This document shows positions 6,682 to 46,670 of a stretch of 64,000 nt of DNA, in pieces. The translations under genes and the position numbers were made by a program. This DNA is from Candidatus Moraniibacteriota bacterium. GTDB taxonomy: Bacteria > Patescibacteriota > Minisyncoccia > Moranbacterales > UBA2206. The stretch covers positions 108,589 through 172,588 of the forward strand of contig JAAXWW010000001.1 in the NCBI GenBank assembly GCA_013334765.1. Reading direction: 5' to 3'. Positions within the stretch are counted from its first letter, which is position 1. The number at the start of each line of letters is the position of its first letter. The notes beneath the pieces are model-generated. The model was not told the DNA's origin. It was given only the letters and a program-made list of their open reading frames with translations, and did not search any database.

Positions 6682-7449
6682 TTGGATATGGGAAAGCTGC
6701 TGATAGGGAATTTGAAAATGAATATTCTGAGCTCATATGAGAGGGACAGGTATTTTTCCGATTTCAATCTTGAAATGAAAAAATATGATTTTCCAGGATC
6801 ATCCCTGGTATTGTGCCCGCCATCCCTGCACATCGAGGCTTTCAGGAATAATTTCGGCGAGACTCTTTCTGTCGGTGCTCAGAACGTCTTTTGGGAGGAC
6901 AAAGGGTCGTATACGGGTGAGATATCGCCCAAGATGCTCAAGAACTTCGGCGTGGAATACGTGATTGTCGGACACAGTGAAAGGCGGAAATTCCTTGGCG
7001 AAAACGGGAGGATAATAAACGCTAAGGTCACAGCTTCTTTGAAGGCCAATTTGAAACCTGTTCTTTGTATCGGAGAAACGAGGCAGGAGAAGGATGCGAA
7101 TCAGATCGTGAAGGTGCTGACTCTTCAGATCAGGGAAGCTCTTCACGGCGTGTCCAAGCTGCGTGCCGGAAGCATTATCATCGCCTATGAGCCGATCTGG
7201 TCGGTTGGGACGGACAAGATTCCCAGTTCCAATGAGATCATGGAAGCCAAGGTGATAATTCGGAAGATCATATTTTCCATGTTCGACAGGAATATCGCCG
7301 AGAGCATCCCGGTTATTTATGGCGGCAGCGTCAGCTCGTTCACTGCCAAGCAGGTATGTGTCGACAGCGCCATGGACGGCGCGCTGGTCGGAAGGGAGAG
7401 TCTCATCCCGAAGGAATTCTTGAAGATAGCAGGCGTTATCGGTTGTTAG
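6682..7449 (+). CDS. tpiA: Triosephosphate isomerase
   Basis: 'GNLKMN', 'VGHSERR', 'AYEPIWSVGT', 'YGGSV' motifs. Confidence 0.9.
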   Translation: MDMGKLLIGNLKMNILSSYERDRYFSDFNLEMKKYDFPGSSLVLCPPSLHIEAFRNNFGETLSVGAQNVFWEDKGSYTGEISPKMLKNFGVEYVIVGHSERRKFLGENGRIINAKVTASLKANLKPVLCIGETRQEKDANQIVKVLTLQIREALHGVSKLRAGSIIIAYEPIWSVGTDKIPSSNEIMEAKVIIRKIIFSMFDRNIAESIPVIYGGSVSSFTAKQVCVDSAMDGALVGRESLIPKEFLKIAGVIGC

Positions 7450-7473
7450 CATAATTCTAAAAAATAAAATCAT

Positions 7474-8343
7474 ATGATTACAAGCGTAAAAGAGATTCTT
7501 GCGAAAGCTAAGGAAGGCGGATACGCGGTCGGCGCTTTCAATACGATAAACTTGGAAACGACTCGGGCAATCGTCGATGCGGCACAGGAGCTGAGGTCGC
7601 CGGTTATTATCCAGGTTACGGAGAAAACCATGGAATACGCGGGGGGCAGGATGATATTCAATATCATCAAGAATGAAGTGGAATTCTATGCTCCTGAGGT
7701 TCCGGTAGGGATCCATCTCGATCACGGGAAAAGTTTTGAAATAATAGAACGCGCGGTGGAAATCGGTTTCACTTCGGTCATGTATGACGGATCGAGAAAG
7801 AAATTCGCCGATAATCTCGATATCACTAAAAAAGTAGTCGCTCTTTGCAAAGAGAAAGGGGTGGATGTGCAGGGGGAACTGGGTAGCGTTCCGTATCTTG
7901 GAGAAGCCGGGACGGGTGAGATCAACTGGGATGAATATATGACCGATCCTGGACAGGCCGCGACGTTCGTTCGCGAATCAGGCATTGACGCTTTGGCTGT
8001 GGCGATCGGGAACGCGCATGGGTTCTTCAAAGAGCGGGAGGTGCCTGATTATGACAGGCTTGAGATGGTAAACAAATCCTGTGATAACATGCCGTTGGTC
8101 CTTCATGGCGCTTCCGATTGGGAGGATGGGAAAGTCAAAGAAGTCATAAGCCGCGGGATATGCTGCTTCAATGTCGACACGGCGATCCGGTTGGCTTTCA
8201 TAAATAGTGTTATAAATTCCACCAAGAACCAAGGGAGGAGCATTTCTTTCGATGTGCGTAATCTTCTAGGAGAGGCAAGGGAGGCGGTCAAGGACGTGGT
8301 AAAGCAGAAGATGATACTTTTCGGTTCTGACGGAAAGATATAG
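7474..8343 (+). CDS. fba: Class II fructose-bisphosphate aldolase
   Basis: 'GYAVGAFN', 'PVIIQ', 'HLDHG' class II aldolase motifs. Confidence 0.85.
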   Translation: MITSVKEILAKAKEGGYAVGAFNTINLETTRAIVDAAQELRSPVIIQVTEKTMEYAGGRMIFNIIKNEVEFYAPEVPVGIHLDHGKSFEIIERAVEIGFTSVMYDGSRKKFADNLDITKKVVALCKEKGVDVQGELGSVPYLGEAGTGEINWDEYMTDPGQAATFVRESGIDALAVAIGNAHGFFKEREVPDYDRLEMVNKSCDNMPLVLHGASDWEDGKVKEVISRGICCFNVDTAIRLAFINSVINSTKNQGRSISFDVRNLLGEAREAVKDVVKQKMILFGSDGKI

Positions 8344-8385
8344 CCAATTCCAGGCAATAATAAAAGTGAAGTGAGATATTGAACA

Positions 8386-8835
8386 ATGAAGCCTGTTACG
8401 GTTGAAAAAATCCTTTTGGAATTCGATCCCGAGCAAGGGAATATTTTGCCGGTACTGAAAAGAATCAATGCCGCTTTTGGATATGTTTCCGAAACGGACG
8501 CTAAGAAGATGGCGGATTATTTCTCAGTTTCCCTGTCTCATATTTTCGAGTTGGCGAGTTTTTACAGCCTTATCGGGACTAAAAAGGATTCGGATATCGT
8601 TATCAAGATATGTTCCGGAACTAATTGTACGGTTCAGGGCAGTTCTTGCCTTATAGCTGAAGTTGAAAAATATTTCGGAATAAAAGCAGGCGATGAGTTC
8701 AATCCCAAAGTCAGGTTGGAAGTGATCAGCTGTCTTGGGAGATGCGGCGAAGGGCCGATCATGATGGTGAATGGCAGGATATACACGAAAGTGACAGTTT
8801 CAGGCGCCCGGGATATCTTGGAAAATATGGAGTAA
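8386..8835 (+). CDS. NuoE/HoxE-like [2Fe-2S] thioredoxin-like subunit (24 kDa family)
   Basis: Four-Cys pattern 'CSGTNC...CLGRCGEGP' typical of NuoE/HoxE/HydC. Confidence 0.8.
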   Translation: MKPVTVEKILLEFDPEQGNILPVLKRINAAFGYVSETDAKKMADYFSVSLSHIFELASFYSLIGTKKDSDIVIKICSGTNCTVQGSSCLIAEVEKYFGIKAGDEFNPKVRLEVISCLGRCGEGPIMMVNGRIYTKVTVSGARDILENME

Positions 8836-8857
8836 ACGGAATGCTTCCGAATATCAT

Positions 8858-10087
8858 ATGGATAATATAAAAATAATAACCGAGCATTGGGACAAGATCG
8901 ATCCGAAGAAGATCGCGGATTATGTCGCTGTCGGAGGATACGAAACGCTTAGGAAATTCGTTTGCGAGGCGGATCCGGCTTCAGCCTTGCAAGAGATAAA
9001 GAAGTCCGGTCTTCTGGGGCGGGGCGGGGCTGGTTTCCCGATCGGCGACAAGCTCGAGCTGGTGGCTTCCAGCAATAAAAAAGAAAAGTATTTCATTTGC
9101 AACCTGGATGAATCAGAGCCAGGGACATATAAGGACAGGGAAATCGCCAAGAACAACCCGCATCTTCTCATTGAGGGAATAGCTTTGGCGTCGCTTATTA
9201 TTGGGGCGAAAAAGGCATTCATTTATCTCAATGGGAATTATGAAGAAGAAGAGGAGATTCTGGAATGTGCTCTTTCTCAGTCTATTGAGAACGGCTTCAT
9301 TGGTGAAGGAATACTCGGATCGGAATACGGGCTTGAGATGGAAGTGTTCCAAGGGGCTGGCGCGTATATTTGCGGAGAGGAAACGGCGCTTCTCAATTCG
9401 ATCGAAGGCCGTCGCGGCGAACCGAGGCTGCGTCCGCCGTATCCGACGGACAAAGGGCTTTGGGGCCATCCGACGGCTATTGGGAATGCCGAGACCGTTT
9501 CGAATTTTCCTTGGATAATCAAGAACGGAGGGGCGGAATATTCCAGGATCGGTTCGGCTGATTCTCCAGGCACGAAGCTGTATACTTTGGGCGGATCCGT
9601 GAAAAATACGGGAATATTCGAGCTGCCGACCGGAATCAGCATTCGCGATCTTATCCAGAAATCGGGTGGCGGGATGATGCTGGGGAAGGAATTCTGGTTT
9701 GCGCAGATAGGCGGAGCGTCCGGAAGGTTGGTGTTGGAAAACGAGTTGGAAGAGAAGCTGGTTCTGAAAAAGGGCGCCAAGATACCGCTGGGTTCCGGAG
9801 CGGTTCTGGTGGTTGATAAGACGGTGGATATCCATGATATGATTTTGTCCTGGACTGGATTTTTCAGGCGAGAATCTTGCGGGAAATGCGTTCCGTGCCG
9901 GGAGGGGACATTCCGCCTTTTTGAAATAGCGAAGAGGATGAATAATGGGAAGATGAGCGAACGGGATAAGGCGGCTGTTTCCGATATCCTTTGGGCGCTT
10001 GAGAACACGACTTTCTGCCCGTTCGGGAAATTTTCTGCCACTGCTTTCCGGGATACAGTGGAGAAGTTGAACATATCGAATTCGTAA
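8858..10087 (+). CDS. NuoF/HoxF-like NAD(P)H-binding FMN/[4Fe-4S] diaphorase subunit (51 kDa family)
   Basis: 'GRGGAGFP' FMN site, NADH-binding Gly-rich segment, 'CGKCVPCREG' 4Fe-4S motif. Confidence 0.85.
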   Translation: MDNIKIITEHWDKIDPKKIADYVAVGGYETLRKFVCEADPASALQEIKKSGLLGRGGAGFPIGDKLELVASSNKKEKYFICNLDESEPGTYKDREIAKNNPHLLIEGIALASLIIGAKKAFIYLNGNYEEEEEILECALSQSIENGFIGEGILGSEYGLEMEVFQGAGAYICGEETALLNSIEGRRGEPRLRPPYPTDKGLWGHPTAIGNAETVSNFPWIIKNGGAEYSRIGSADSPGTKLYTLGGSVKNTGIFELPTGISIRDLIQKSGGGMMLGKEFWFAQIGGASGRLVLENELEEKLVLKKGAKIPLGSGAVLVVDKTVDIHDMILSWTGFFRRESCGKCVPCREGTFRLFEIAKRMNNGKMSERDKAAVSDILWALENTTFCPFGKFSATAFRDTVEKLNISNS

Positions 10088-10263
10088 TAATCATCATGGT
10101 TTTCGGGATTTATACATCCTCATAGGAATTACTATTGCGACATGGATGGGTGTAAGTTTAGTTTTCGGATTTTCATAAGACGGATATCTTTTATAATAAT
10201 GGGCATGAGTAATTTATTTCTGAATGCTCACTCCCTCAGCGCAGTAATTGGTTGGTATAAATT

Positions 10264-11658
10264 ATGAAAATAAAAATAAACAACGTTGAATATAGCGCCA
10301 AAATCGGAGAAACGATTCTGGATGTCTGCAAAAGGGAGAGAATAAGGATCCCAACCCTGTGCGCGTATAAGAACCTGAATCGTGAGGCGGTTTGCCGGAT
10401 GTGTTTGGTTGAGGTGAATAAGAGCGATAGCCTGGTCACGTCCTGCTCGTTCAAGGTCTGCGGCGGTTTGGAGGTGACAACTGAAAGCGAGAGGATTCAG
10501 AAGGCTCGCAAGGTCAGTTTGGAGCTTCTTTTCGCGGATCACGCGGGGAAGTGCGTAAAATGCAGGAAAAATAGGCGCTGCGAACTTCAGAACTTGGCCG
10601 AGGAGAACAAGATAGATAATTTCCATTTTGTTCCAAAGAAAGATGAGATCGGTTCTGCTGACGAGCTTGATCTGCTCAAGGACAACAGATCGCGCCTGGT
10701 TTTTGAGGATAATAACAGGGTAATCACGAGGACGACGGAATATTGCATTTCGTGCAGAAGGTGCGTAAACGTTTGCCCGACTCAGGAATTCGGCCTTAGC
10801 CGTCGCGCGGCGGATACGGTTGTCGGAACTCCGTATGGCAAGGAACTGGATTGCATATTCTGCGGCGCATGCGTCAGGGCTTGTCCGACAGGCGCGCTTA
10901 CGGATCATGGCGATATTGTGAAAGCGCAGGACGAACTGGATAACCTCAACAAGCTCGCGGTGGCGATCGTGGACGAGACTGTTCTGAGAAATATCGCGGA
11001 TGAGATCGGAGGATTGCCGGCTGGGGATGTGAGCGGGGAAGTCATCGGGTATTTGCACGAGCTCGGATTTGAAAAAGTCTTCAGTCTTTCTTTCGGTCTC
11101 GGAAAATGGATCGAATCCGCCAAGGAAAAGATGGAAAACAGAAAAAGGCCGATTATCAGCGATTATTGCCCGTCGGTTGCCATATATGTGAAAAAATATT
11201 TCCCGTCTCTCGCGGATAATCTGCTGGGTGTGCCTACGCCGGATGATATCATGGCAAGATATATCAAGAATGAATATGCGGATAAGGAAAAGATAGATGC
11301 GGATAATATCGTGGTTATTTCAATCTCAGGGTGCCTTGCGAAGAGGAAAACCAAAGGAAGATATCTGGATCATGTCATGAGCCCGAGCCAGATCGGGCGG
11401 ATGGTCCGCGTGAAAAAGATAGGCAAGGTTGAGAAGGGTAAGTTTGATCATCTTGCAAAAGAAGATATGCATCCGGATGCGTATAGTATGAACAGGAAAG
11501 GCGGAGTGGCGAACGCTCTTTCTAGCGGGATATCCGACGCCAGGGCAGCAAGCGGAATCAAGGATATAAAGAGGATTCTTGAGGATATGGACAGAGGAAA
11601 TGCCGAATATGATTTCGCCGATCTCATGGTTTGCGATGGGGGATGTGAAAATAAATAG
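10264..11658 (+). CDS. HoxU/NuoG-N-terminal-like Fe-S subunit fused to a C-terminal domain with degenerate [FeFe]-hydrogenase H-cluster motifs
   Basis: 2Fe-2S Cys pattern (C33,C44,C47,C61); His-ligated cluster 'HAGKCVKCRKNRRC'; two CxxCxxCxxxCP motifs; C-terminal C302 (SDYCPSV), C357-K360 (SGCLAK), C457/C461 (MVCDGGC) with spacings 55/100/4. Confidence 0.7.
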   Translation: MKIKINNVEYSAKIGETILDVCKRERIRIPTLCAYKNLNREAVCRMCLVEVNKSDSLVTSCSFKVCGGLEVTTESERIQKARKVSLELLFADHAGKCVKCRKNRRCELQNLAEENKIDNFHFVPKKDEIGSADELDLLKDNRSRLVFEDNNRVITRTTEYCISCRRCVNVCPTQEFGLSRRAADTVVGTPYGKELDCIFCGACVRACPTGALTDHGDIVKAQDELDNLNKLAVAIVDETVLRNIADEIGGLPAGDVSGEVIGYLHELGFEKVFSLSFGLGKWIESAKEKMENRKRPIISDYCPSVAIYVKKYFPSLADNLLGVPTPDDIMARYIKNEYADKEKIDADNIVVISISGCLAKRKTKGRYLDHVMSPSQIGRMVRVKKIGKVEKGKFDHLAKEDMHPDAYSMNRKGGVANALSSGISDARAASGIKDIKRILEDMDRGNAEYDFADLMVCDGGCENK

Positions 11659-11672
11659 TAAATAACGAAAAT

Positions 11673-11888
11673 ATGTGTCTGACTATACCTAAGAAAGTGG
11701 TTGAGATAGACGGCAACAAAATCGTGGTCGAGCTTGCCAATGGCGATAGACAAAGCGTGAAAAGTATCGTAGCATTGGAAATAGGTGATTTTTGCTTAAC
11801 GCAGCAGAACGTTGCCATAGAGAGGATAGACGCCGACTATGCTGGCGAGCTCATTGAAATACTGAAAGGAGGAAAAGCCAATGTCTGA
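11673..11888 (+). CDS. hypC: Hydrogenase maturation factor HypC
   Basis: Starts 'MCLTIPKKVVEI', the HypC N-terminal Cys2 signature; 71 aa. Confidence 0.8.
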   Translation: MCLTIPKKVVEIDGNKIVVELANGDRQSVKSIVALEIGDFCLTQQNVAIERIDADYAGELIEILKGGKANV

Positions 11889-12600
11889 AATCATCATAAC
11901 TCCGGACGGCTTGCGCCTCCTGGGTCTTGTTTTGGTAACTTGCCCGTCGGAAACCACCAATGGAGGGGTTCTTGGCAAACAGCACGCCTTGGAATTGGCA
12001 AGAGACGAAAAAAGCGTGGGTTTTGAAGAATTCATGCACTATCTGGGATTGAGAAATCCCGGTCCGAGCGTTTTTTCCCATATCCACAAAGTGGCTGTTG
12101 GAAAAGGCGCGGCTTCGATCGATGCTGCCTTTGTGGCTGGATATTTCGGCGGCAAGCCGCATATCGAAAGAGTTGTCGCTGGAACTAGTAAAGAAACACT
12201 CTGCGGACTGTTTGGAGATAATGGATATTATTTCAAATCAATCGTTTCGCACGTCCTGCTGCCAGCTCGCGTCAGCAATGTCCGCTTGGATGATGTCAAA
12301 GGAAAGAAAGCGCATGTCGTTGATGCCATTTATGAAAATGGGGATATGAATCTTTCCTTCTCCAACCTTATTATGCTCCCAAGAGAACCGGTCGAAAAAG
12401 GCCAGTTTGTCCTGTGCCATCACTCATCCGTTCTTCCGGGAATAGTTTCTGAAGATATGAAAAAGCTGCTTCTTGAAGCGCAGTTGGATAGTAGCGCATT
12501 CATGGAAGCATGCCGCAAGATTGATCAAGACGGCATCAACCATTGTTCGATGCTGAGTTTACCTGCTGCAAGAGCAGCGCTGGATTACGATTGTTCCTAA
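11881..12600 (+). CDS. Hypothetical protein embedded in the hydrogenase cluster
   Basis: 239-aa ORF overlapping the hypC stop by 8 nt (translational coupling); no recognised motif; terminator directly after it. Confidence 0.5.
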   Translation: MSEIIITPDGLRLLGLVLVTCPSETTNGGVLGKQHALELARDEKSVGFEEFMHYLGLRNPGPSVFSHIHKVAVGKGAASIDAAFVAGYFGGKPHIERVVAGTSKETLCGLFGDNGYYFKSIVSHVLLPARVSNVRLDDVKGKKAHVVDAIYENGDMNLSFSNLIMLPREPVEKGQFVLCHHSSVLPGIVSEDMKKLLLEAQLDSSAFMEACRKIDQDGINHCSMLSLPAARAALDYDCS

Positions 12601-12643
12601 GCGGAGCATGAACCATCAGGTTTCATCGCTCCGCTTTTTTTAT
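12601..12643 (+). terminator. Rho-independent terminator
   Basis: gcggagc...gctccgc stem followed by TTTTTTT. Confidence 0.6.
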
Positions 12644-12672
12644 TCCTGCGAATTTATGGTAAAATATAAGGC

Positions 12673-13803
12673 ATGAAACACAAAAATATTTCAAATATAA
12701 AAACCGGTGCCAAGAAGAGGGTCCTTCGCAAAAAAATTGCGGAGCGGACAAAAAAGAAGGTCGCAAGAAAACCGGCAAAAAGGAAACATCTGGATATCGG
12801 ATCACTAACAGGAAAAAAATCACTGTTCGATCATATCAAGGGAAGCCTTGTGGCTTTTTCGAAAAAGAAAGAAGGCAAGAGTATCCCAGAAGAAGGGAGG
12901 ATAATTTCCATGAACGAACCGGTGAAGGAAATCGAAATCCCGATTGTTTTGAAAGAAGCAAGAAAGAATCCTGCAAAAAAAGCTCCTGCGAAAAAAAGGA
13001 AGAAGGCTGTTGCTGAGGAAACCGGGCTTATGAATCTTCCTAAGCCCCGCGTTGCGATCGTGAGCCTCACTTCGTGCGAAGGCTGCCAGTTCGTCCTTTT
13101 GGATCTCGGGGAAAGGTTTTTCGAGTTCGTGAAGAGCGTTGAACTGGTTGATTTCCGCATGGTCGAGGATCAGGAAGATGACAACCTGCAGCTCGATCTG
13201 GTGCTGGTGGAAGGCAATCCTGTTACTGAGGAGAATGTGGAAACTCTCAAAAGAGTGCGGGCTAGGGCCAAAGTCCTAGCGGCTCTTGGAAACTGTGCGG
13301 CGATGGGCGGAGTGCCAGAGATCAAGAACTATCAGAAAGGGAAGAGCACCATAAAGCACGTATACAAGTATATTCACGGCATAAGCAATCCTGAGATCAA
13401 GGAAATAGATAATTTCGTGAAAGTTGATTTCGTTTTCCCGGGGTGTCCGATTGACGGAGAAGAGTTCCTGAAATATATGCCAGAGCTTCTCAAGGGAAAT
13501 GTTCCGCAGATTCCGGATCAGGCGGTCTGTCTTGAGTGTAGGAAGAAAGGAAACAAATGCCTTCTTTTGGAGAAGAAGCCGTGCTTCGGTCCGATGATCC
13601 TGGGCGGATGCGATGCGGTCTGTCCTACGGCTAGGATGGGCTGTCAGGGTTGCCGCGGGCTGCGCCCGGAAGGCAGCATCAAAGTGATGCGTGCGACATT
13701 GAAAAGCATGATGACTGATGAAGAATTCGAGAATGTGACGGAAATATACGGCCTCAGGGATGATTTGGAAGAGAAAGAGAAAAAAGAGAAAAAGGAGAAG
13801 TAG
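12673..13803 (+). CDS. [NiFe]-hydrogenase small subunit (group 3-like) with a Cys-rich C-terminal extension; true start uncertain (alternatives 12910 or 13030)
   Basis: 'VAIVSLTSCEGCQ' proximal-cluster motif and 'CLECRKKGNKC...CFGP...GGCDAVCP...CQGCRG' extra Fe-S cysteines. The N-terminal ~119 aa are Lys/Ala-rich; a strong RBS gaagggagg precedes the ATG at 12910. Confidence 0.7.
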   Translation: MKHKNISNIKTGAKKRVLRKKIAERTKKKVARKPAKRKHLDIGSLTGKKSLFDHIKGSLVAFSKKKEGKSIPEEGRIISMNEPVKEIEIPIVLKEARKNPAKKAPAKKRKKAVAEETGLMNLPKPRVAIVSLTSCEGCQFVLLDLGERFFEFVKSVELVDFRMVEDQEDDNLQLDLVLVEGNPVTEENVETLKRVRARAKVLAALGNCAAMGGVPEIKNYQKGKSTIKHVYKYIHGISNPEIKEIDNFVKVDFVFPGCPIDGEEFLKYMPELLKGNVPQIPDQAVCLECRKKGNKCLLLEKKPCFGPMILGGCDAVCPTARMGCQGCRGLRPEGSIKVMRATLKSMMTDEEFENVTEIYGLRDDLEEKEKKEKKEK

Positions 13804-14266
13804 TCTCTACGAATTACGAATCTTACGAAATTACGAACAGCAGATGAAAACAAATAAAGATATCATATATGCCGATGAATCTTATGAGATTATTGGGATG
13901 ATGTATGAGGTTCATGACAAGATAGGATCTGGACACAAAGAAGTTTTCTATCAAAAAGCTGTAGCGGAAATTTTCAGGAAGAATGGCAAAAATTTCAAAG
14001 AGCAGCTAAGATTGAAGGTGAAGATGGGTGGCAAGGAAGTGGGAGAATATGTTCTGGATTTTTTGTATGAGGATATTATTGTCATAGAATTGAAGCAGGG
14101 TGAAGTTTTTTCAAAGAGCAATATAAATCAAATATATGTTTACCTGAAAGCGACCGGATTGAAACTTGGCTTGTTGATAAATTTTACAAGAAACGGAGTC
14201 AAATTCAAAAGAATCGTCAATATAGCATAAATTCGTAATTTCGTATAATTCGTATTTCGTAGAGAA
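13804..14266 (+). mobile_element. GxxExxY-gene cassette bounded by 'TACGAAT'-rich inverted repeats (copy E1)
   Basis: Left arm tctctacgaattacgaatcttacgaaattacgaac (13804-13838) and right arm attcgtaatttcgtataattcgtatttcgtagagaa (14231-14266) are reverse complements; inserted between the hydrogenase small and large subunit genes. Confidence 0.55.
13844..14230 (+). CDS. GxxExxY protein (PD-(D/E)XK nuclease superfamily)
   Basis: 'SYEIIGMMYEVHDKIGSGHKEVFYQKAV' (GxxExxY core) and 'ELKQGE' motif; start chosen at the internal Met 'MKTNKDIIY'. Confidence 0.75.
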   Translation: MKTNKDIIYADESYEIIGMMYEVHDKIGSGHKEVFYQKAVAEIFRKNGKNFKEQLRLKVKMGGKEVGEYVLDFLYEDIIVIELKQGEVFSKSNINQIYVYLKATGLKLGLLINFTRNGVKFKRIVNIA

Positions 14267-14269
14267 TTC

Positions 14270-15529
14270 ATGGAGATAAAAATAAACCACATTGCTAAGA
14301 TGGAAGGGCACACTGGCTTCATGGCGAGTGTGATTCATGGCGATGTGAAAGCTGCGAAACTGGAAGTCAAAGAGGGGATCCGTCTTATCGAGGGCGTGCT
14401 CATAGGCCGTGATTATCGGGATATGCCGGTGGTAGCGCAAAGGATCTGCGGGATCTGCCCGGTGGTGCACAACATCACTTCGATAAAAGCCATAGAGAAT
14501 GCGATGGGGGTTTCAGTCACGCCAGAGACGAAAAAGCTCAGGACGCTCATGGAATACGCCCAGATCATTCATTCTCATGCACTGCATCTTTTCTTTTTGT
14601 CCTTGGCTGATTTTTTGGATATGGATAATGACATCAAGCTCATGCAGGATTATCCTGAGGAAGCAAGGATGGCAATCAAAATACGCGAATACGGGATGTC
14701 GATTGTCAAAGTGATCGGAGGAAGGGTCGTGCATCCGCTCACTAATGAAGTCGGAGGATTCAAGAAGGCGCCGGATACTGAAGAACTCAAGAGGCTGCTT
14801 GATGAATCAGGGGAGGTGCTTAAAACGGCTCTGGAACTGGGAGAGTTTTTCAAGACGATCAAGGCCCCTGACTTTTCGCGCGAGACGGAATACGTATCTC
14901 TCGGCAAGAAAGGCGAATATGCCATATATGACGGCGATGTCATTTCTAATTTCGGGCTGCATATCCTGACGGAGAAATTCGAGAACAACTTCCTGGAGCT
15001 CCAGAAACAGAATGAGATCATAAAAAGGGTCGAGCATAGAGGAAAAAGCTATATGGTCGGAGCGATTGCCAGGTTGAACAATTCCAGGGAAAAACTCAGA
15101 CCGAAGGCGGCAAAATACCTGGAAAGTCTCGGCTGGAGCTTTCCGGACTATAATCCCTTCCACAACATCCTCGCTCAGATGACGGAACTTATCCACTTCA
15201 TTGAAGAATCTGCCAGGCTTCTTTCAGAGCTGCTCAATTGCGATCTGAATGAAGTCATAACCAAGGAATATGAAATCAAGGAAGGATCGGGTTCCGCGGC
15301 AGTGGAAGCTCCGCGCGGGACTCTCTACTACCATGTCGATATCGATCCGAAAGGATATATCAGGAACGTGAATATCATAACGCCGACGGCTCAATTCCTG
15401 TCGAACCTGGAAGATGACGTAGCGGCATATATCCCTGAAATAATAAACCTGGACCCGAAAGAAAGGGAGAAGAAGCTCCGCGCGTTCATCCGTGCCTATG
15501 ATCCGTGCATATCCTGCGCGGTTCACTAG
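14270..15529 (+). CDS. [NiFe]-hydrogenase large subunit (group 3-like), no C-terminal propeptide
   Basis: N-terminal 'RICGICPVVH' (RxCGxCxxxH) and C-terminal 'DPCISCAVH' immediately followed by the stop codon. Confidence 0.85.
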   Translation: MEIKINHIAKMEGHTGFMASVIHGDVKAAKLEVKEGIRLIEGVLIGRDYRDMPVVAQRICGICPVVHNITSIKAIENAMGVSVTPETKKLRTLMEYAQIIHSHALHLFFLSLADFLDMDNDIKLMQDYPEEARMAIKIREYGMSIVKVIGGRVVHPLTNEVGGFKKAPDTEELKRLLDESGEVLKTALELGEFFKTIKAPDFSRETEYVSLGKKGEYAIYDGDVISNFGLHILTEKFENNFLELQKQNEIIKRVEHRGKSYMVGAIARLNNSREKLRPKAAKYLESLGWSFPDYNPFHNILAQMTELIHFIEESARLLSELLNCDLNEVITKEYEIKEGSGSAAVEAPRGTLYYHVDIDPKGYIRNVNIITPTAQFLSNLEDDVAAYIPEIINLDPKEREKKLRAFIRAYDPCISCAVH

Positions 15530-15544
15530 ATAAAGTAAAAAATT

Positions 15545-15587
15545 AAAGGTAAAAAGTAAAAAATATTTTACATCTACTTTTTACCTT
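15545..15587. promoter_or_regulatory. AT-rich perfect 14-bp inverted repeat (aaaggtaaaaagta / tactttttaccttt) between the large subunit and hypA-like genes
   Basis: Read directly; could be a weak intrinsic terminator or an operator. Confidence 0.3.
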
Positions 15588-15613
15588 TTACTTCTAACTT
15601 TTAACTTTGAAAC

Positions 15614-15892
15614 ATGCATGATTTTCTATTAGCCAAAGAGATAATCGACAAGCTTCGCGAGATTGCCCAAGAGAAAAAGATTTCGAAGATAACTAGGGTC
15701 AATCTTGAAATAGGCAACATATCGATGAGCCACGACGGGCATCCGGAACACTTGGAGGAAATCAATATTGAAAATCTCGAATTCGGGCTTGGCGGAATCG
15801 TGAAAGACGATCCGATGTTCCGGGATGTTAAATTCGGTATCAGGAAAACTCAGAGCGAAAGCTGGGGCATAACGGATATCGAGGCGGAATGA
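15614..15892 (+). CDS. HypA-like protein lacking the zinc-finger cysteines
   Basis: N-terminus 'MHDFLLAKEIIDKLRE...ITRVNLEIGNIS' parallels the HypA 'MHE(L/I)SL...' Ni-binding N-domain; 92 aa with no Cys at all. Confidence 0.45.
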   Translation: MHDFLLAKEIIDKLREIAQEKKISKITRVNLEIGNISMSHDGHPEHLEEINIENLEFGLGGIVKDDPMFRDVKFGIRKTQSESWGITDIEAE

Positions 15893-15930: not shown

Positions 15931-16926
15931 ATGACAAAAATCGCAATCAACGGGTTTGGGAGGATCGGACGTCCATCGTTCAAAATCGCTTTCGCAAACG
16001 ATGAATTGGAAGTAGTGGCGATCAATGATCTTACGGATCTCAAAACTGCAGCGCATCTCCTCAAGTATGATTCGTCCTATGGGCGATATGGCAAGGAAGT
16101 CCTCATTGATGAGGAAAACTCGGAGCTGATCGTAGACGGAACGCGCATCAAATATCTGAGCGAACCGGATCCATCCAAGCTTCCGTGGGACGAATTGGGA
16201 GTCGAAGTAGTTCTTGAATGCACGGGAATATTCAACGACAAGGAAAAGGCAGCGAAGCATATAGCAGCCGGAGCAAGGAAGGTCATCCTTTCAGCGCCTC
16301 CGAAAGGCGACGATGTTCCGGTCTATCTCATCGGAGTCAACGACCATGAATACGCTGGCGAAGACGTCGTTTCCAATGGTTCCTGCACCACCAACTGCCT
16401 GGCGCCGATGATCAAGGTCCTGGAGGACAATTTCGGAGTGGAAAAGGGGTTTATGACAACGACGCATTCATATACCAATGATCAGAGGCTCCAGGATCTC
16501 CCGCATAGCGATCTTCGCCGGGCAAGAGCCGCAGCTTTGAATATCATCCCGACAACGACTGGAGCTGCCAAGACTGTCGGAAAAGTGATGTCCAGTCTCA
16601 AGGGTCAATTGGATGGCATAGCGCTTCGCGTTCCGACGCCGACCGTTTCGATCGTCGATTTCATCTGTATATTGAAGAAAGAAGCGACAGTCGAGGAAAT
16701 AAACGAAGCCTTCCGTCAGGCGGCATCCAACGGATTGAGGAATATTCTCGGAACCACAGACGAAGGCCTGGTATCTATGGATTTCAAGGGAGAGAAGAAC
16801 AGCGCGGTTGTCGATTTGCCGCTCACGATGGCTAACGGAACGCTTGCTAAGGTTGTCGGATGGTACGATAATGAATGGGGATACTCGAACAGGATGGTCG
16901 AGATGGCTGTCATCGTGTCGAAATAA
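15931..16926 (+). CDS. gap: Glyceraldehyde-3-phosphate dehydrogenase
   Basis: 'INGFGRIGR' and 'SCTTNCLAP' active-site motifs. Confidence 0.9.
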   Translation: MTKIAINGFGRIGRPSFKIAFANDELEVVAINDLTDLKTAAHLLKYDSSYGRYGKEVLIDEENSELIVDGTRIKYLSEPDPSKLPWDELGVEVVLECTGIFNDKEKAAKHIAAGARKVILSAPPKGDDVPVYLIGVNDHEYAGEDVVSNGSCTTNCLAPMIKVLEDNFGVEKGFMTTTHSYTNDQRLQDLPHSDLRRARAAALNIIPTTTGAAKTVGKVMSSLKGQLDGIALRVPTPTVSIVDFICILKKEATVEEINEAFRQAASNGLRNILGTTDEGLVSMDFKGEKNSAVVDLPLTMANGTLAKVVGWYDNEWGYSNRMVEMAVIVSK

Positions 16927-18577: not shown

Positions 18578-18579
18578 GT

Positions 18580-18653
18580 GGGCTTATCTGGATTCGAACC
18601 AGAGACCTCGTCATTATCAGTGACGCGCTCTAACCAACTGAGCTATAAGCCCT
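18580..18653 (-). tRNA. tRNA-Ile (anticodon GAU)
   Basis: Reverse complement folds as a cloverleaf: GGGCTTATAGCTCAGTTGGTTAGAGC...CTGATAA...GGTTCGAATCC...TAAGCCCA. Confidence 0.85.
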
Positions 18654-18659
18654 TCCTGT

Positions 18660-18732
18660 GGACCCTATCGGGCTCGAACCGATCACCCCCTGCTTGCAAA
18701 GCAGGTGCTCTACCAAATGAGCTAAGGGCCCG
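18660..18732 (-). tRNA. tRNA-Ala (anticodon UGC)
   Basis: Reverse complement GGGCCCTTAGCTCATTTGGTAGAGC...CTTTGCAAG...GGTTCGAGCC...AGGGTCCA with G3:U70 Ala identity pair. Confidence 0.85.
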
Positions 18733-43255: not shown

Positions 43256-43721
43256 AGACTACGAAATACGAAAATATTACAAAAATACAAAAAATGGAGA
43301 CGGGCAAAGTTATTTATAAGGAGTTAAGTTATGAGATAGTCGGTGCTGCTTTTGAAGTTTTTAAAGAGCTTGGACCTGGCTATAAAGAGAAACATTATGA
43401 AGATGCTGTCTCAAAGGAATTTACAAAAAGAAATATAAGCTATAAAAGACAGATACAATATAAATTGCTATATAAAGGAGAATCAATAGGAATGAATCAG
43501 TTTGATTTCCTGATAGATGATAGAATAATCGTAGAGTTGAAACGCGGAGATTATTATTCTAAAAACAATATAGACCAAGTGATCCAATATTTGAAGACGT
43601 CCAAGCTGAAGCTGGCCATTCTCATAAATTTCACATCAACCGGAGTAAAATTCAAACGAATATTGAATATAAAATAGTTTGTAATTTTTGTATTTTTGTA
43701 ATAATTTTGTAATTTTGTAGG
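43256..43721 (+). mobile_element. GxxExxY-gene cassette with TACGAAA/TACAAAA-type inverted repeat arms (copy E3), between the T-box leader and ileS
   Basis: Left arm agactacgaaatacgaaaatattacaaaaatacaaaaa; right arm tttgtaatttttgtatttttgtaataattttgtaattttgtag (imperfect reverse complement). Confidence 0.5.
43294..43677 (+). CDS. GxxExxY protein (PD-(D/E)XK nuclease superfamily), paralog of the 13844 gene
   Basis: 'SYEIVGAAFEVFKELGPGYKEKHYEDAV' and a C-terminus 'KLAILINFTSTGVKFKRILNI' nearly identical to the other copy. Confidence 0.75.
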   Translation: METGKVIYKELSYEIVGAAFEVFKELGPGYKEKHYEDAVSKEFTKRNISYKRQIQYKLLYKGESIGMNQFDFLIDDRIIVELKRGDYYSKNNIDQVIQYLKTSKLKLAILINFTSTGVKFKRILNIK

Positions 43722-43724
43722 AAT

Positions 43725-46670
43725 ATGTTCAAAAAAGTAGACCCGAAACGAACGCTTCCCAAAATGGAAGAGGAAATATTGAAGTTCTGGAACGAGAACA
43801 GGATATTCGAGAAATCCATCGAGAATAGGGAATGCTCACCGCTCTATAGCTTCTATGACGGTCCGCCGTTCGCGACTGGGCTGCCTCACTACGGTCATTT
43901 GGTCGGCAGCACTATGAAAGATGTCGTACCGAGATATTGGACGATGAAAGGATATAAAGTGGAAAGGAAATGGGGATGGGATTGCCATGGCCTTCCGATC
44001 GAGAACATCGCTGAGAAAGGGCTGGGAATCAAAAGGAAGAATGAGATCGAGGAATTGGGCGTTGAAAAATTCAACGAGTTCTGCCGTTCGACGGTTCTTG
44101 AATATGTCGCGGAGTGGAAAGTCATCATCAATCGCCTGGGGCGCTGGGCGGATATGGAAAACAGCTATAAGACGATGGATAAGCCGTTCATGGAATCGGT
44201 CTGGTGGGTTTTCAAGGAACTTTGGGACAAAGGGCTCATATATGAAGGATACCGTTCCATGCATGTCTGCACCCGATGCGAGACGACTTTGTCGCAACAG
44301 GAAGTTTCTGAAGGTTACAAAGACATCAAGGATCTTTCGGCAATCGCAAAATTTGAGTTTGTTGATGAACCGGGAATATATGTTCTTGCTTGGACGACGA
44401 CACCTTGGACGCTGATTGGAAATGTCGCATTAGCTGTCGGGAAAGATATTGATTATGTGAAAATAAGATATAACAACAAAGAAGGTGATCCTGAATTATT
44501 TATTTTGGCAAAAAACATTTATGATGCCAGAAAAGAAGACTTATTTCCGTCAGTTAAGCAACTGTCCGAGGGTGAAGTTCCTCCTGTGCCGCCAGTCATA
44601 ATAGATACTATCCATGGATCGGATCTAGTTGGCAAAAAATACAAACCCCTCTTTGATTATTATCAGGACAAAGGTCTTCAGAACGAAGAGAATGGCTGGA
44701 AAATATATCCGGCTGATTTCGTGACGACCGAAGATGGAACAGGGGTGGTGCATATCGCTCCGGCTTTCGGAGAAGACGATTTGAATTTGAGTTATGAACA
44801 TAAGCTGCCGTTCATCCAGCATGTCGGCATGGACGGGCTCATCAGGAAAGAAGCCGGTGAATTTGCCGGGATGAGCGTGAAACCCCTGGATGATCACATG
44901 AAAACCGACATCGAAATCATCAGATATCTTGCCAAGAACGGGTTGCTTTTTTCCAAAGAGAAATACGAGCATAGCTATCCTCACTGCTGGAGATGCGACA
45001 CTCCTCTCATCAACTATGCGACATCATCCTGGTTCGTGGCTGTCACTAAGATCAAAGAAAAGGCCTTGGAGTTGGCCAAAGAAATAAGCTGGTCGCCGGA
45101 GCATATGAAAGAAGGGCGGTTCGGCAACTGGCTGGAAGGGGCGCGTGACTGGTCGATTTCCCGTCAGCGCTATTGGGCTTCAGTCATGCCGATCTGGAAA
45201 TGCGAATGCGGGGAAATGCGAGTGTTCGGCCGGGTGAGCGATCTGGAAGAGGCGAGCGGACAGAAAGTTGATGATCTTCATAAGCATGTCGTCGATAAGA
45301 TAACCATGCCTTGCGCGAAATGCGGAGGAATAATGAAGCGCATTCCTGACGTTCTTGATACTTGGTTTGATTCCGGATCGATGCCGTATGCCCAGGCTCA
45401 TTATCCGTTTGAAAATGAGGAGAAATTCGAAAAAAGTTTCCCGGCCCAATTCGTTGCGGAAGGCGTCGATCAGACGCGTGCCTGGTTCTATTATCTGCAT
45501 GTCATCGCAACTGGCATCAAGGAAAAAGCCGCATATAAGAATGTCATCGTGAACGGAATAGTTTTAGCGGAAGATGGAAAGAAAATGTCGAAACGTCTTA
45601 AGAATTATCCTGATCCGACTGATATGTTCGATAAGTATGGGGCGGATGCGCTCAGGTTCTATCTGATGTCTTCTCCTGTTGTTGCTGCAGAAAATCTCAA
45701 TTTCAAAGAAGCGGATGTGTCCGATCTTGTGCGCGGGATGTTCCGCATGCTCTGGAATTCATATTCATTCTTCGCGCTCTATGCCGATATCGATGGCTGG
45801 GATCCAAAGAGGAATCGGCTTGAACCTGTTCATCTCTTGGATAAATGGATGTTGTCAGAGCACAATGTCCTCGTTCGTGACGTGAATAGGCACATGGAGA
45901 ATTATGAACTGCACAGAGCTTCCAGGCTGTTCGTGAAATTCATCGACAACCTGTCCAACTGGTATATCCGCCGCTCAAGGAAGCGCTTCTGGAAGAGCGA
46001 GAATGATGATGACAAGAATCAGGCCTATGCGACGCTCTATCATGTCCTTGTCGAGCTTTCCAAACTGATGGCTCCGTTCACGCCGTTCATTGCTGAAGAG
46101 ATATACAAGAACCTGACCCAGGGGGAATCGGTGCATCTCGAAGATTTTCCGCAGGCCGACGCTTCTGCGATAGATGAGAAGCTGAATCAGGAGATGGCTA
46201 AGGTCAGGGAGGTGATCAGCGAGGGATTGCAGTTGCGCGCCAAGGCAAAGATAAAAGTCAGGCAGCCGCTTCAAGCGGTTATCGTCAAGAACGAGGTATC
46301 CAATAGCGAACTGGTAGAAATAATCAAGGACGAGCTGAACGTCAAAGATGTCGTCGTGAAAAAAGACCAGGAAGAAGAGATTGTCTTGAACACTGAAATC
46401 ACTGAGGATTTGAAACTCGAAGGTCAGGCTCGCGAGATCGTCCGCGCTGTCCAGGAGATGAGAAAAGAAGCTGACTATGTTGTCGACAACCGGATCGAAA
46501 TCGCCTATGATTCAGCTTCGCCGATATTTTCAAATCCGGAGCTCAAAGAGCTCATCAAGAAAGAAACCCTTGCCAACAAGCTGGAAGAGGGGGGCATGGA
46601 AAATCCGGATATCCGAAAAGAACTGAATATCGATGGAGAAAAGATTTCCATCTCGATAAGAAAAGCATAA
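43725..46670 (+). CDS. ileS: Isoleucyl-tRNA synthetase
   Basis: 'PFATGLPHYGHL' (HIGH), 'KMSKRLKN' (KMSKS), CP1 editing domain; 981 aa. Confidence 0.9.
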   Translation: MFKKVDPKRTLPKMEEEILKFWNENRIFEKSIENRECSPLYSFYDGPPFATGLPHYGHLVGSTMKDVVPRYWTMKGYKVERKWGWDCHGLPIENIAEKGLGIKRKNEIEELGVEKFNEFCRSTVLEYVAEWKVIINRLGRWADMENSYKTMDKPFMESVWWVFKELWDKGLIYEGYRSMHVCTRCETTLSQQEVSEGYKDIKDLSAIAKFEFVDEPGIYVLAWTTTPWTLIGNVALAVGKDIDYVKIRYNNKEGDPELFILAKNIYDARKEDLFPSVKQLSEGEVPPVPPVIIDTIHGSDLVGKKYKPLFDYYQDKGLQNEENGWKIYPADFVTTEDGTGVVHIAPAFGEDDLNLSYEHKLPFIQHVGMDGLIRKEAGEFAGMSVKPLDDHMKTDIEIIRYLAKNGLLFSKEKYEHSYPHCWRCDTPLINYATSSWFVAVTKIKEKALELAKEISWSPEHMKEGRFGNWLEGARDWSISRQRYWASVMPIWKCECGEMRVFGRVSDLEEASGQKVDDLHKHVVDKITMPCAKCGGIMKRIPDVLDTWFDSGSMPYAQAHYPFENEEKFEKSFPAQFVAEGVDQTRAWFYYLHVIATGIKEKAAYKNVIVNGIVLAEDGKKMSKRLKNYPDPTDMFDKYGADALRFYLMSSPVVAAENLNFKEADVSDLVRGMFRMLWNSYSFFALYADIDGWDPKRNRLEPVHLLDKWMLSEHNVLVRDVNRHMENYELHRASRLFVKFIDNLSNWYIRRSRKRFWKSENDDDKNQAYATLYHVLVELSKLMAPFTPFIAEEIYKNLTQGESVHLEDFPQADASAIDEKLNQEMAKVREVISEGLQLRAKAKIKVRQPLQAVIVKNEVSNSELVEIIKDELNVKDVVVKKDQEEEIVLNTEITEDLKLEGQAREIVRAVQEMRKEADYVVDNRIEIAYDSASPIFSNPELKELIKKETLANKLEEGGMENPDIRKELNIDGEKISISIRKA

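Follow-up and report, generated by a model that had tools for sequence, protein, structure and literature searches.

A group-3b-like [NiFe] hydrogenase pair encoded beside NuoEF and a truncated [FeFe]-type HydA in Moranbacteria

The 64,000-nucleotide stretch of Candidatus Moraniibacteriota contig JAAXWW010000001.1 analysed here (positions 108,589 to 172,588; hereafter the window) contains, on its plus strand at 8386–15892, a hydrogenase locus that brings together NuoE and NuoF subunits, an [FeFe] hydrogenase-type protein with a truncated H-domain (HydA*), the small and large subunits of a [NiFe] hydrogenase (HyhS and HyhL) and a partial set of Hyp maturation genes. Open reading frame (ORF) calling placed every gene named in the original prediction, which had been made from the sequence alone, at the coordinates and on the strand given there, and the Pfam and NCBIfam profile scans of the predicted proteins by which families were assigned supported its domain calls. 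The prediction spoke of seven consecutive genes and itself listed eight; with an overlooked GxxExxY gene (13760–14230) the locus comprises nine ORFs. The better-supported description is that of an enzyme found across the Moranbacteria lineage, whose group-3b-type [NiFe] dimer has been placed on a former [FeFe] HydABC chassis. The features of the locus are as follows.

8386–8835, + strand: NuoE/HydC/HoxE-like [2Fe-2S] subunit (NuoE), 149 aa; 2Fe-2S_thioredx, E 1e-30
8858–10087, + strand: NuoF/HydB-like flavin mononucleotide (FMN)/NAD(H) subunit (NuoF), 409 aa; Complex1_51K, SLBB and NADH_4Fe-4S; nuoF_fam, 419 bits
10170–10197, + strand: promoter-like site, TTTTCA-16-TATAAT, 10/12 matches; consensus match only, weak evidence
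10264–11658, + strand: HydA*, 464 aa; Fer2_4, NADH-G_4Fe-4S_3, two Fer4 and Fe_hyd_lg_C
11673–11888, + strand: HypC type 2, 71 aa; HupF_HypC (PF01455), E 6e-12
11881–12600, + strand: ORF239, 239 aa; no family match in Pfam or NCBIfam; 8-nt overlap with hypC
12599–12641, + strand: terminator-like hairpin followed by U7, called by folding energy against shuffles
12673–13803, + strand: HyhS, [NiFe] small subunit, 376 aa; Oxidored_q6, E 2e-22; ShyD and HydD, 153 bits
13760–14230, + strand: GxxExxY/PD-(D/E)XK protein, 156 aa; PDDEXK_3, E 9e-28; TIGR04256, E 4e-29
14270–15529, + strand: HyhL, [NiFe] large subunit, 419 aa; NiFeSe_Hases, E 6e-37; sulfhydrogenase alpha, 238 bits
15614–15892, + strand: HypA*, 92 aa, without Cys; Pfam HypA, 27.2 bits (cut-off 28.9), residues 1–39 only

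Conservation within the locus is highest in HyhL and HyhS, with 73–81% and 60–78% identity across relatives, respectively. HyhL contains the motifs RICGICPVVH, EAPRG and DPCISCAVH with all four Ni-Fe cysteines, and its scores against PDB proteins were highest for the alpha subunit of Pyrococcus furiosus sulfhydrogenase I (SHI; 223 bits), with 176 bits for Mvh, 174 for HydL of Acetomicrobium mobile and 132 for the NAD-reducing Hox enzyme. The closest NCBIfam matches of HyhL were to sulfhydrogenase alpha (238 bits against an equivalog cut-off of 880) and those of HyhS to sulfhydrogenase delta (153 bits against cut-offs of 460–500). Residues 124–331 of HyhS align to P. furiosus SHI delta with 138 bits, and all Cys of the proximal, medial and distal [4Fe-4S] clusters are aligned. 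The cysteines that the original prediction had regarded as extra Fe-S ligands of the small subunit are, by this alignment, those of the normal medial and distal clusters of group 3b. From the best PDB and NCBIfam matches and the alignment of the cluster Cys, the pair appears group-3b-like, with a predicted three-cluster small subunit. The conserved core of HyhS begins at ~13042, preceded by a Lys-rich low-complexity N-terminal tail (residues 1–123; 12673–13041) that has no counterpart in P. furiosus SHI delta; because relatives carry in-frame Lys/Ala-rich tails of differing length, from 0 to ~150 aa, this tail is taken to be real but variable. HyhL terminates at the His of DPCxxCxxH, and every complete copy in relatives likewise stops at ...DPCISCAVH, so that a C-terminal endopeptidase should not be needed for a protein without an extension. 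HyhB and HyhG were not found in the locus, among the 49 window proteins scanned or in related loci, and the same 49 proteins included no other redox partner for HyhSL.

The NuoF protein is closest to the Bfu-type HydB of A. mobile (344 bits) but is similar in size to NuoF of Aquifex or Thermus. Its alignment covers only residues 117–508 of the 597-aa A. mobile HydB (7t2r_B), the protein consisting of three Pfam domains only and lacking both the N-terminal [2Fe-2S] domain and the C-terminal 2x[4Fe-4S] domain. The extra HydB domains with clusters B2–B5 separate bifurcating from non-bifurcating enzymes (PMC9304861). Since these N- and C-terminal domains are absent, NuoF is predicted to be non-bifurcating, with FMN and one [4Fe-4S] cluster, and electron bifurcation was rejected as a candidate activity on the basis of this architecture. 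The Moranbacteria loci that encode a full-length HydA carry an equally short NuoF, and one of these full-length proteins is labelled by NCBI as an NADH-dependent group A6 [FeFe] hydrogenase; the short NuoF and this label together suggest a simple NADH-to-H2 (or reverse) enzyme. NuoE is 49–64% identical across related loci.

HydA* is composed of a NuoG-N/HoxU-like N-terminal part of ~230 residues, with sites for a [2Fe-2S], a His-ligated [4Fe-4S] and 2x[4Fe-4S] clusters, and an [FeFe] hydrogenase H-domain that had been proposed in the original prediction and is borne out by a match to Fe_hyd_lg_C (PF02906) over residues 234–461 (E 8.9e-32, 111 bits, profile positions 5–241 of 245). A true Moranbacteria HydA scores 325 bits with the same profile. 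HydA* reaches 274 bits with NF040763, the group A6 [FeFe] model (cut-off 765), and 133 with TIGR02512 (cut-off 406), and the Pfam scan gave no match of HydA* to PF02256, the Fe_hyd_SSU-type segment. Its closest PDB match is T. kivui HydA1 (8a6t, 198 bits), and other solved relatives include a further bifurcating [FeFe] HydA (184 bits) and T. maritima HydA (150 bits).

The motifs of the H-domain are altered at several points. L1 reads SDYCPSV in HydA* as opposed to TSCCPSW in true HydA, so that the relay Cys is replaced by Tyr and the Trp is gone; L2 reads SGCLAKR as opposed to MPCxxKK, with the Cys and Lys kept and Met-Pro gone; and L3 reads LMVCDGGCENK, directly followed by the stop codon, as opposed to MACPxGCxxGGGQP, with both Cys kept and GGGQ gone. 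Further changes include Ala to Asp in the APS motif, GGVME to GGVAN and the deletion of ~35 residues between L2 and L3. Only 3 residues follow the last Cys, and the C-terminal lid or tail of ~70 residues is absent. HydA* keeps the conserved Lys and the four cubane Cys that ligate the [4Fe-4S] portion of the H-cluster.

A database search with HydA* returned hundreds of relatives, nearly all unnamed or Moranbacteria/Parcubacteria proteins. The locus was surveyed by scanning one genome per GTDB species, which returned 80 loci (numbered here with the prefix L) from metagenome-assembled genomes (MAGs) titled Moranbacteria, Parcubacteria or Patescibacteria, or with uninformative or evidently mislabelled titles. 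The genes of these loci were called as ORFs and then classed with family hidden Markov models (HMMs) built in this analysis, and HypD, HypE and HypF were confirmed by Pfam. Class C HydA proteins (~585–600 aa) have perfect L1–L3 motifs and the SSU tail; class A proteins (~450–510 aa) are truncated and of the HydA* type; and class B proteins (~338–353 aa) have no Fe_hyd_lg_C match: L1 is deleted, the L2 Cys is substituted and the protein is truncated before L3, with hypC still kept. Truncated HydA of class A or B occurs in 45 species-representative loci. In a neighbour-joining (NJ) tree of the N-terminal 230 residues of HydA, classes A and B group together and are separated from class C, and class B is monophyletic inside a paraphyletic class A; this tree carries no bootstraps and is indicative only.

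Conservation was counted over 87 truncated class A proteins. The cubane Cys are present in 84–86 of the 87 and Lys or Arg occupies the conserved Lys position in 86. The proton-relay Cys occurs in none (0/87), being replaced mainly by His (43), Phe (20), Tyr (15) or Asn (7). Ser stands in place of the Met before the L2 Cys in 84/87, and Asp replaces the Ala of the APS motif in every one of the 87. Class A proteins extend past L3 by 3–20 aa, compared with 66–82 aa in true HydA. Approximately 80% of class A retain a CxGGCxxGGG(Q/N/K/R) L3 motif, and that of HydA* from the window is the most eroded of the class. The mean pairwise identity within class A is 67% for the N-terminal part and 43% for the H-domain, compared with 80% and 78% in class C; because the class C sample is more closely related internally, the ratio of the two parts is the informative figure.

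The truncation of HydA is strictly tied to the hyp and hyh genes. A hypC gene follows truncated HydA in 40 of the 43 loci with enough downstream sequence and full-length HydA in none of 30, and hyhS or hyhSL are present in 22/45 truncated-HydA loci. Where at least 9 kb of downstream sequence was available, hyhS was found in 6/8 class A, 10/17 class B and 0/21 class C loci; overall, hyhSL is kept in 10 of the 24 class B loci. The canonical gene order is triosephosphate isomerase (TIM), fructose-bisphosphate aldolase (FBA), NuoE, NuoF, HydA*, HypC, HypD, HypE, half a HypF on the opposite strand, HyhS, HyhL, HypA*, glyceraldehyde-3-phosphate dehydrogenase (GAPDH) and an amidohydrolase. TIM-FBA lie upstream of nuoE in most related loci, and GAPDH follows HypA* in relatives. 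The full-length HydA loci of Moranbacteria show the same order of NuoE (146 aa), NuoF (~408 aa) and HydA, often downstream of TIM-FBA. Three flanking members of this order are present in the window:

6682–7449, + strand: TIM, upstream context; Pfam TIM, E 9e-73
7474–8343, + strand: class II FBA, adjoining nuoE on its upstream side; F_bP_aldolase, E 9e-88
15931–16926, + strand: GAPDH, adjoining HypA* on its downstream side; Gp_dh_N and Gp_dh_C

The motif losses, the low identity of the H-domain and the loss of its Cys in class B suggest that catalysis has moved to the [NiFe] site and that the H-domain has become dispensable. The H-domain of HydA* thus looks like a relic and not a second active site, and by analogy the class A H-domain probably still binds a [4Fe-4S] cluster only. 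Nar1/NARFL-type proteins are H-domain relatives that likewise keep the cluster Cys and that bind Fe-S clusters only, without a [2Fe] subsite; they differ in being eukaryotic cytosolic Fe-S assembly factors that lie outside hydrogenase complexes and in another domain context. The original prediction saw [FeFe] and [NiFe] architectures superimposed at this locus. NuoEF, a HydA-type protein, a [NiFe] pair and partial Hyp genes do stand side by side in a non-textbook arrangement of a reduced-genome bacterium, but the losses in the H-domain speak against two working hydrogenases.

The maturation genes of the window belong to a compact variant of the locus. Of the 45 truncated-HydA loci, 33 carry hypD between hypC and hyhS, in most cases accompanied by hypE and a half-hypF. 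The HypF of these relatives corresponds to the Kae1-like half only (HypF_C and HypF_C_2; 371–500 aa by longest-ORF call). Its acylphosphatase, Zn-finger and YrdC-like domains are missing, and its gene lies inside the locus on the opposite strand (e.g. L001, 13753–14931, − strand). As the original prediction had stated, hypD, hypE and hypF are absent from the 64-kb window, where tblastn with the proteins of relatives was negative. Domains of HypB, of HydE, HydF and HydG and of the endopeptidase were likewise seen in none of the 49 scanned window proteins, a set that leaves out 13 shorter ORFs, including 61738–62781 (347 aa). Beside the full-length HydA of three relatives, nothing obvious resembling HydEFG appeared in the ORF lists, with which no HMM search was made. 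The compact arrangement of HypC type 2 and ORF239 without hypD, hypE and hypF is shared by the window, L003, L009, L020, L045, L055 and apparently L035; these loci are scattered over the HydA tree and represent at least five or six other species.

HypC type 2 (MCLTIPKK...GDFCLTQQNVAI) keeps the Met-Cys N-terminus with Cys2. The His motif VHAGFAI is changed to LTQQNVAI in the window, and the His is absent from the other type-2 copies as well. Identity is 43–62% within the type and 25–33% to the usual MCLAIPGK...VHAGFAI type, and type 2 was seen only where a member of the ORF239 family is present or hypDE are absent. The fold predicted for ORF239 comprises an N-terminal helical domain, an OB-fold barrel (~residues 127–185) and C-terminal helices, and ORF239 may carry a HypC-like OB barrel with the VLVH-type motif that is absent from HypC type 2. 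A word-indexed search for homologues of ORF239 returned only itself, an exhaustive phmmer search 53 clusters and a profile search 8. The possibility that ORF239 is a remnant of HypD, HypE or HypF was rejected, as tblastn showed no similarity, and the occurrence of hypDEF and an ORF239 homologue side by side in L048 indicates that it is not a degraded Hyp gene.

The last gene encodes the HypA-like protein without Cys described in the original prediction, HypA*. It is ~90 aa long and follows hyhL in all relatives, with an invariant MHDF N-terminus, a His-rich AHDGHPEH loop and no Cys. Its resemblance to HypA is confined to the first 40–50 residues; the N-terminus begins with MHD instead of MHE, and the AHDGHPEH loop replaces the four-Cys Zn site. 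A profile of the HypA* family matched T. kodakarensis HypA (3a43) with an E-value of 0.39, and a single-sequence AlphaFold2 (AF2) model with a predicted local distance difference test (pLDDT) score of 53 was too poor for a fold search.

The nine ORFs are better taken as a gene neighbourhood that is conserved but probably transcribed in more than one unit than as the single operon-like array of the original prediction. Directly 3′ of the ORF239 stop codon and before hyhS lies the hairpin at 12599–12641 (dG −22.4 kcal/mol, z −6.1), and none of 200 shuffled sequences folds as well; a consensus terminator scan overlooked it owing to its bulged stem. The gap between nuoF and hydA* measures 176 bp and holds the promoter-like site. 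The hairpin before hyhS and the gap before hydA* together make a single transcript improbable.

The slot between hyhS and hyhL is variable. It is occupied in the window by the GxxExxY gene, whose annotated start overlaps the end of hyhS by 44 nt, and a GxxExxY gene is also found there in L060. Among the 20 relatives with both hyhS and hyhL, 15 have a matrixin-like gene in this position, sometimes with additional small ORFs, and in four the slot is empty. The matrixin-like protein, which the slot of the window lacks, is 307–341 aa long with an N-terminal hydrophobic anchor and a Zn-peptidase domain that matches Peptidase_M10 with E 2e-10 (e.g. L001, 15805–16758). The GxxExxY protein is probably not a component of the enzyme. 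A second GxxExxY/PD-(D/E)XK gene was observed at 43294–43677, directly upstream of the isoleucyl-tRNA synthetase gene (43725–46670), and both have the look of small genes, selfish or prone to insertion, that settle between essential ones.

GenBank holds a protein from a Candidatus Moranbacteria MAG with 100% identity to HydA* (10264–11658). An identical gene order was obtained in an independent Logan assembly of SRR11449211, so that the locus is not an assembly chimera. Apart from the hydrogenase locus, Pfam detected housekeeping functions only among the 49 scanned window proteins, the sole radical-SAM protein being MiaB-like. Window genes are almost all on the plus strand, except at ~28–39 kb, and the GC skew is positive nearly throughout 1–64000, with a steadily climbing cumulative skew. 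Long antisense ORFs that overlap real genes (e.g. 6799–7725 and 9277–10074, − strand) are most likely composition artefacts. The Rfam matches in the window are two adjacent tRNA genes only (18579–18731, − strand).

Comparison with known hydrogenases shows both the precedents for this arrangement and its distinguishing features. In A. mobile NiFe-HydABCSL (7T2R/7T30), HydA has no H-cluster and carries the [4Fe-4S] cluster A5 instead, and the NiFe module docks on another branch (PMC8880783). The present locus resembles it in combining HydC/NuoE, HydB/NuoF, a HydA relative predicted to be without an H-cluster and a [NiFe] small and large pair. Unlike this Bfu-family enzyme, NuoF here is without the domains of clusters B2–B5 that define bifurcating HydB (PMC9304861). 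A. mobile HydA aligns only to residues 14–214 of HydA*, and its C-terminal domain does not match the H-domain of HydA* in sequence; a single cluster is present in A. mobile HydS compared with three predicted in HyhS, and HyhL is nearer to group 3b than to A. mobile HydL (223 vs 174 bits). In archaea, hybrids of [FeFe] groups F/G with [NiFe] groups 3f/3g also encode an [FeFe]-type HydA, NuoE/F/G-like subunits and a group-3 [NiFe] pair together (PMC11216029). In archaeal group F, HydA and HyhS form one polypeptide, the H-cluster ligands of HydA are conserved and the protein produces H2 after artificial maturation, and the group F diaphorase has a GltA domain in a complex that is predicted to bifurcate (PMC11216029). 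In contrast to group F, HydA* is unfused, with two genes between it and HyhS, and has N-terminal NuoG-like clusters. It further differs from the archaeal hybrids in lacking key pocket residues and the C-terminal tail and in its derivation from bacterial group A, its nearest relatives being bacterial group A proteins of the same phylum.

P. furiosus SHI of group 3b (9E15, 9NEZ, 5YXY) provides the top matches for HyhL and HyhS, with the Cys of the three clusters conserved. Unlike group 3b, the locus has no HyhB (beta) or HyhG (gamma), NuoEF-HydA* stand in their place, and the scores lie far under the equivalog cut-offs. HydDB already places a Moranbacteria large subunit in group 3b (PMC5037454), and group-3b enzymes of the Candidate Phyla Radiation (CPR) have been treated as P. 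furiosus-like HyhLSGB complexes (PMC10811913). The group 3d enzyme HoxEFUYH shares with the locus a NuoE/F-type diaphorase, a HoxU-type connector and a NiFe dimer, and the N-terminal 220 residues of HydA* match HoxU with 135 bits. It differs in that HoxY has a single cluster, HoxU (~240 aa) has no H-domain and HoxH is a weaker match (132 bits). HoxH normally carries a C-terminal extension that is removed by HoxW. A HoxEFUYH reading of the locus was rejected on the basis of the three-cluster small subunit, the similarity of the large subunit and the presence of the H-domain. The alternative outlined in the original prediction, a clean HoxEFUYH locus without Fe_hyd_lg_C similarity, is not what is found here, because the Fe_hyd_lg_C match is significant and the [NiFe] pair is 3b-like and not HoxYH. 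The non-bifurcating trimeric [FeFe] enzymes of group A6 (S. wolfei/S. aciditrophicus type, PMC7311640) share the NuoE-NuoF-HydA order, and HydA* is 38–41% identical to their 585-aa Moranbacteria members. Unlike HydA*, true group A6 members have TSCCPSW, MPC, CPNGCIGGGGQP and an Fe_hyd_SSU tail and no hyp or hyh neighbours. A Moranbacteria-type trimeric [FeFe] hydrogenase is the probable ancestor of the diaphorase module.

Taken together, we consider it probable, with some reserve, that the product of the locus is a single NAD(H)-linked [NiFe] hydrogenase, cytosolic and non-bifurcating, in which HyhSL is wired to NuoEF-HydA*. H2 chemistry would occur at the [NiFe] site of HyhL, and electrons would pass through the three [4Fe-4S] clusters of HyhS and the N-terminal Fe-S chain of HydA* to the [4Fe-4S] cluster and FMN of NuoF, and from there to the NAD+/NADH couple, with NuoE holding an accessory [2Fe-2S] cluster. 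The NuoE-NuoF-HydA* module would derive from an NADH-dependent trimeric [FeFe] hydrogenase, which is still found downstream of TIM/FBA in other Moranbacteria; a [NiFe] module with Hyp genes would have joined the locus, after which the H-domain of HydA would have lost its catalytic equipment. A [4Fe-4S] cluster on a dead-end branch, comparable to cluster A5 of A. mobile, is most likely all that the H-domain of HydA* binds. With its genes placed among those of glycolysis, between TIM/FBA and GAPDH, the likely role of the enzyme would be to re-oxidise glycolytic NADH by H2 production at low H2 partial pressure, and it may run in reverse. In this model the gene content, domains and motifs, the three HydA classes with their tie to the hyp and hyh genes, the relaxed conservation of the H-domain and the NuoF architecture are observed, while we infer that HyhSL physically associates with NuoEF-HydA*, which cofactors the H-domain holds and in which direction catalysis runs.

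Several observations weigh against this proposal. The binding of HyhSL to NuoEF-HydA* is a prediction, and the hairpin and the 176-bp gap make co-transcription of nuoEF, hydA* and hyhSL uncertain. The synthesis of the Fe(CN)2CO group is not explained here, as hypD, hypE and hypF are missing from both the locus and the window. On thermodynamic grounds, NADH can drive H2 evolution only where the H2 partial pressure is very low. In L059, NuoEF and a class B HydA* are retained but all hyp and hyh genes are gone (8311–13000), and L017, L023, L027 and L034 have HydA* without NuoEF. These variants, together with L032 and L033, indicate that the modules are separable and the locus evolutionarily labile. 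Within class A, the pocket positions are conserved even where they differ from true HydA (Asp in 87/87, Ser in 84/87); the conservation of Asp, Ser, Cys and Lys suggests that the pocket is under selection for some retained or new role, and that the H-domain is therefore not simply decaying. Two further observations on these loci are that HydA* of L059 is followed by a small Cys-rich ORF and then GAPDH, and that a single MAG, C12_metabat.bin.56, holds two such loci, one with full-length HydA and the other with truncated HydA and the [NiFe] genes (L032 and L033), so that the two HydA forms can co-exist as paralogues if the binning is correct.

The separability of the modules keeps alive the explanation that NuoEF-HydA* and HyhSL are two separate enzymes, neighbours by history, of which the former would be an NADH:acceptor (e.g. 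ferredoxin) oxidoreductase and the latter a free heterodimer working with a soluble carrier. The terminator-like hairpin and the promoter-like site before hydA* would suit such an arrangement, as would NuoEF-HydA* without hyp and hyh genes in L059, the orphan HydA* genes without NuoEF and the unrelated genes that often lie between the modules (GxxExxY here; matrixin-like, transposition-type and others in relatives). We nevertheless regard it as unlikely, since the truncation of HydA tracks the hyp and hyh genes (40/43 vs 0/30), order and strand are conserved across dozens of species, characterised group-3 small subunits feed a bound partner of which no other is encoded nearby, and the A. mobile enzyme shows that such a pairing forms a complex (PMC8880783). 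A true hybrid with two H2-active sites, in which the H-domain still binds a [2Fe] subcluster or related cofactor beside the [NiFe] site, would be a bacterial counterpart of the archaeal F/G and 3f/3g hybrids. It would account for the significance of the Fe_hyd_lg_C match (E 9e-32), the presence of the four H-cluster Cys and the CN-binding Lys in 84–86 of 87 class A proteins and the retained CxGGCxxGGG(Q/N/K/R) motif in ~80%. Archaeal complexes with an active HydA are documented, with many hosts lacking HydEFG (PMC11216029), and L032 and L033 in one MAG imply that maturases could exist in some hosts. The proton-relay Cys is, however, absent from 87/87 proteins, and this is accompanied by the Met-to-Ser and Ala-to-Asp replacements, the Trp loss, the change of GGVME to GGVAN, the ~35-aa deletion between L2 and L3 and the lack of a C-terminal lid. 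HydA* itself stops 3 residues past the last Cys without GGGQ, the H-domain is far less conserved than the rest of the protein, class B without any H-cluster Cys keeps the hyp genes and, where seen, hyhSL, and no HydE, HydF or HydG domain was detected among the scanned window proteins. A second H2-active site is very unlikely in the light of these losses.

The missing maturation genes raise the further question of whether the hydrogenase is being lost in this genome, in which case there would be no Fe(CN)2CO group without hypD, hypE and hypF and the remaining genes would be non-functional remnants. Their absence from the locus and the 64-kb window when 33/45 related loci carry hypD, the HydA* L3 motif that is the most eroded of its class and the loss or breakage of the locus in some relatives are in keeping with decay. 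All nine ORFs are intact, however, and HyhL keeps every catalytic motif. Its identity is 74–81% to relatives that carry hypDEF and 73–80% to other compact loci, and this equal conservation in compact and canonical loci argues against decay. The compact HypC2-ORF239 arrangement also recurs in at least six other species on different branches of the HydA tree, favouring selection, and hypD, hypE and hypF could lie elsewhere in the genome; we therefore consider ongoing loss to be highly improbable. A more speculative proposal, which we regard as quite unlikely as a whole, joins two ideas: that HypC type 2 and ORF239 replace HypD, HypE and HypF and, with HypA* and an unprocessed HyhL, form a minimal [NiFe] maturation route in ultra-small genomes, and that the class A H-domain, with its invariant Asp, Ser, His/aromatic position and four-Cys site, holds a reshaped cofactor site with its own function, for example redox or H2 sensing or a second entry of electrons, and would then be no silent relic.

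The design principle of the single [NiFe] enzyme favoured here is already known from A. mobile NiFe-HydABCSL and the archaeal hybrids, and the arrangement is not unique to this genome. In the literature searched, coverage of which was incomplete, we found no earlier description of NuoEF-HydA*-HyhSL in CPR bacteria, which is weak evidence of novelty. What the locus adds is that evolutionary intermediates are preserved and that the compact loci have an unusually small maturation set; if the missing genes are truly absent from the genome, this set is a candidate for the smallest known [NiFe] maturation set. For annotation, the label '[FeFe] hydrogenase' given to such proteins in Moranbacteria is probably wrong, and the CPR 'group 3b' enzymes of this type are without P. 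furiosus-type partners, so that their cofactor use (NADH and not NADPH, with no sulfur reduction) may have been mis-predicted. If the proposal is true, a swap from [FeFe] to [NiFe] on a NuoEF-HydA chassis occurred in CPR bacteria independently of A. mobile and the archaeal hybrids. Three stages of it would be alive in relatives, as full HydA, the truncated H-domain with a cubane site and a vestige without Cys, providing a natural series for how two hydrogenase families came to share electron-transfer hardware and for what a stripped H-domain still does.

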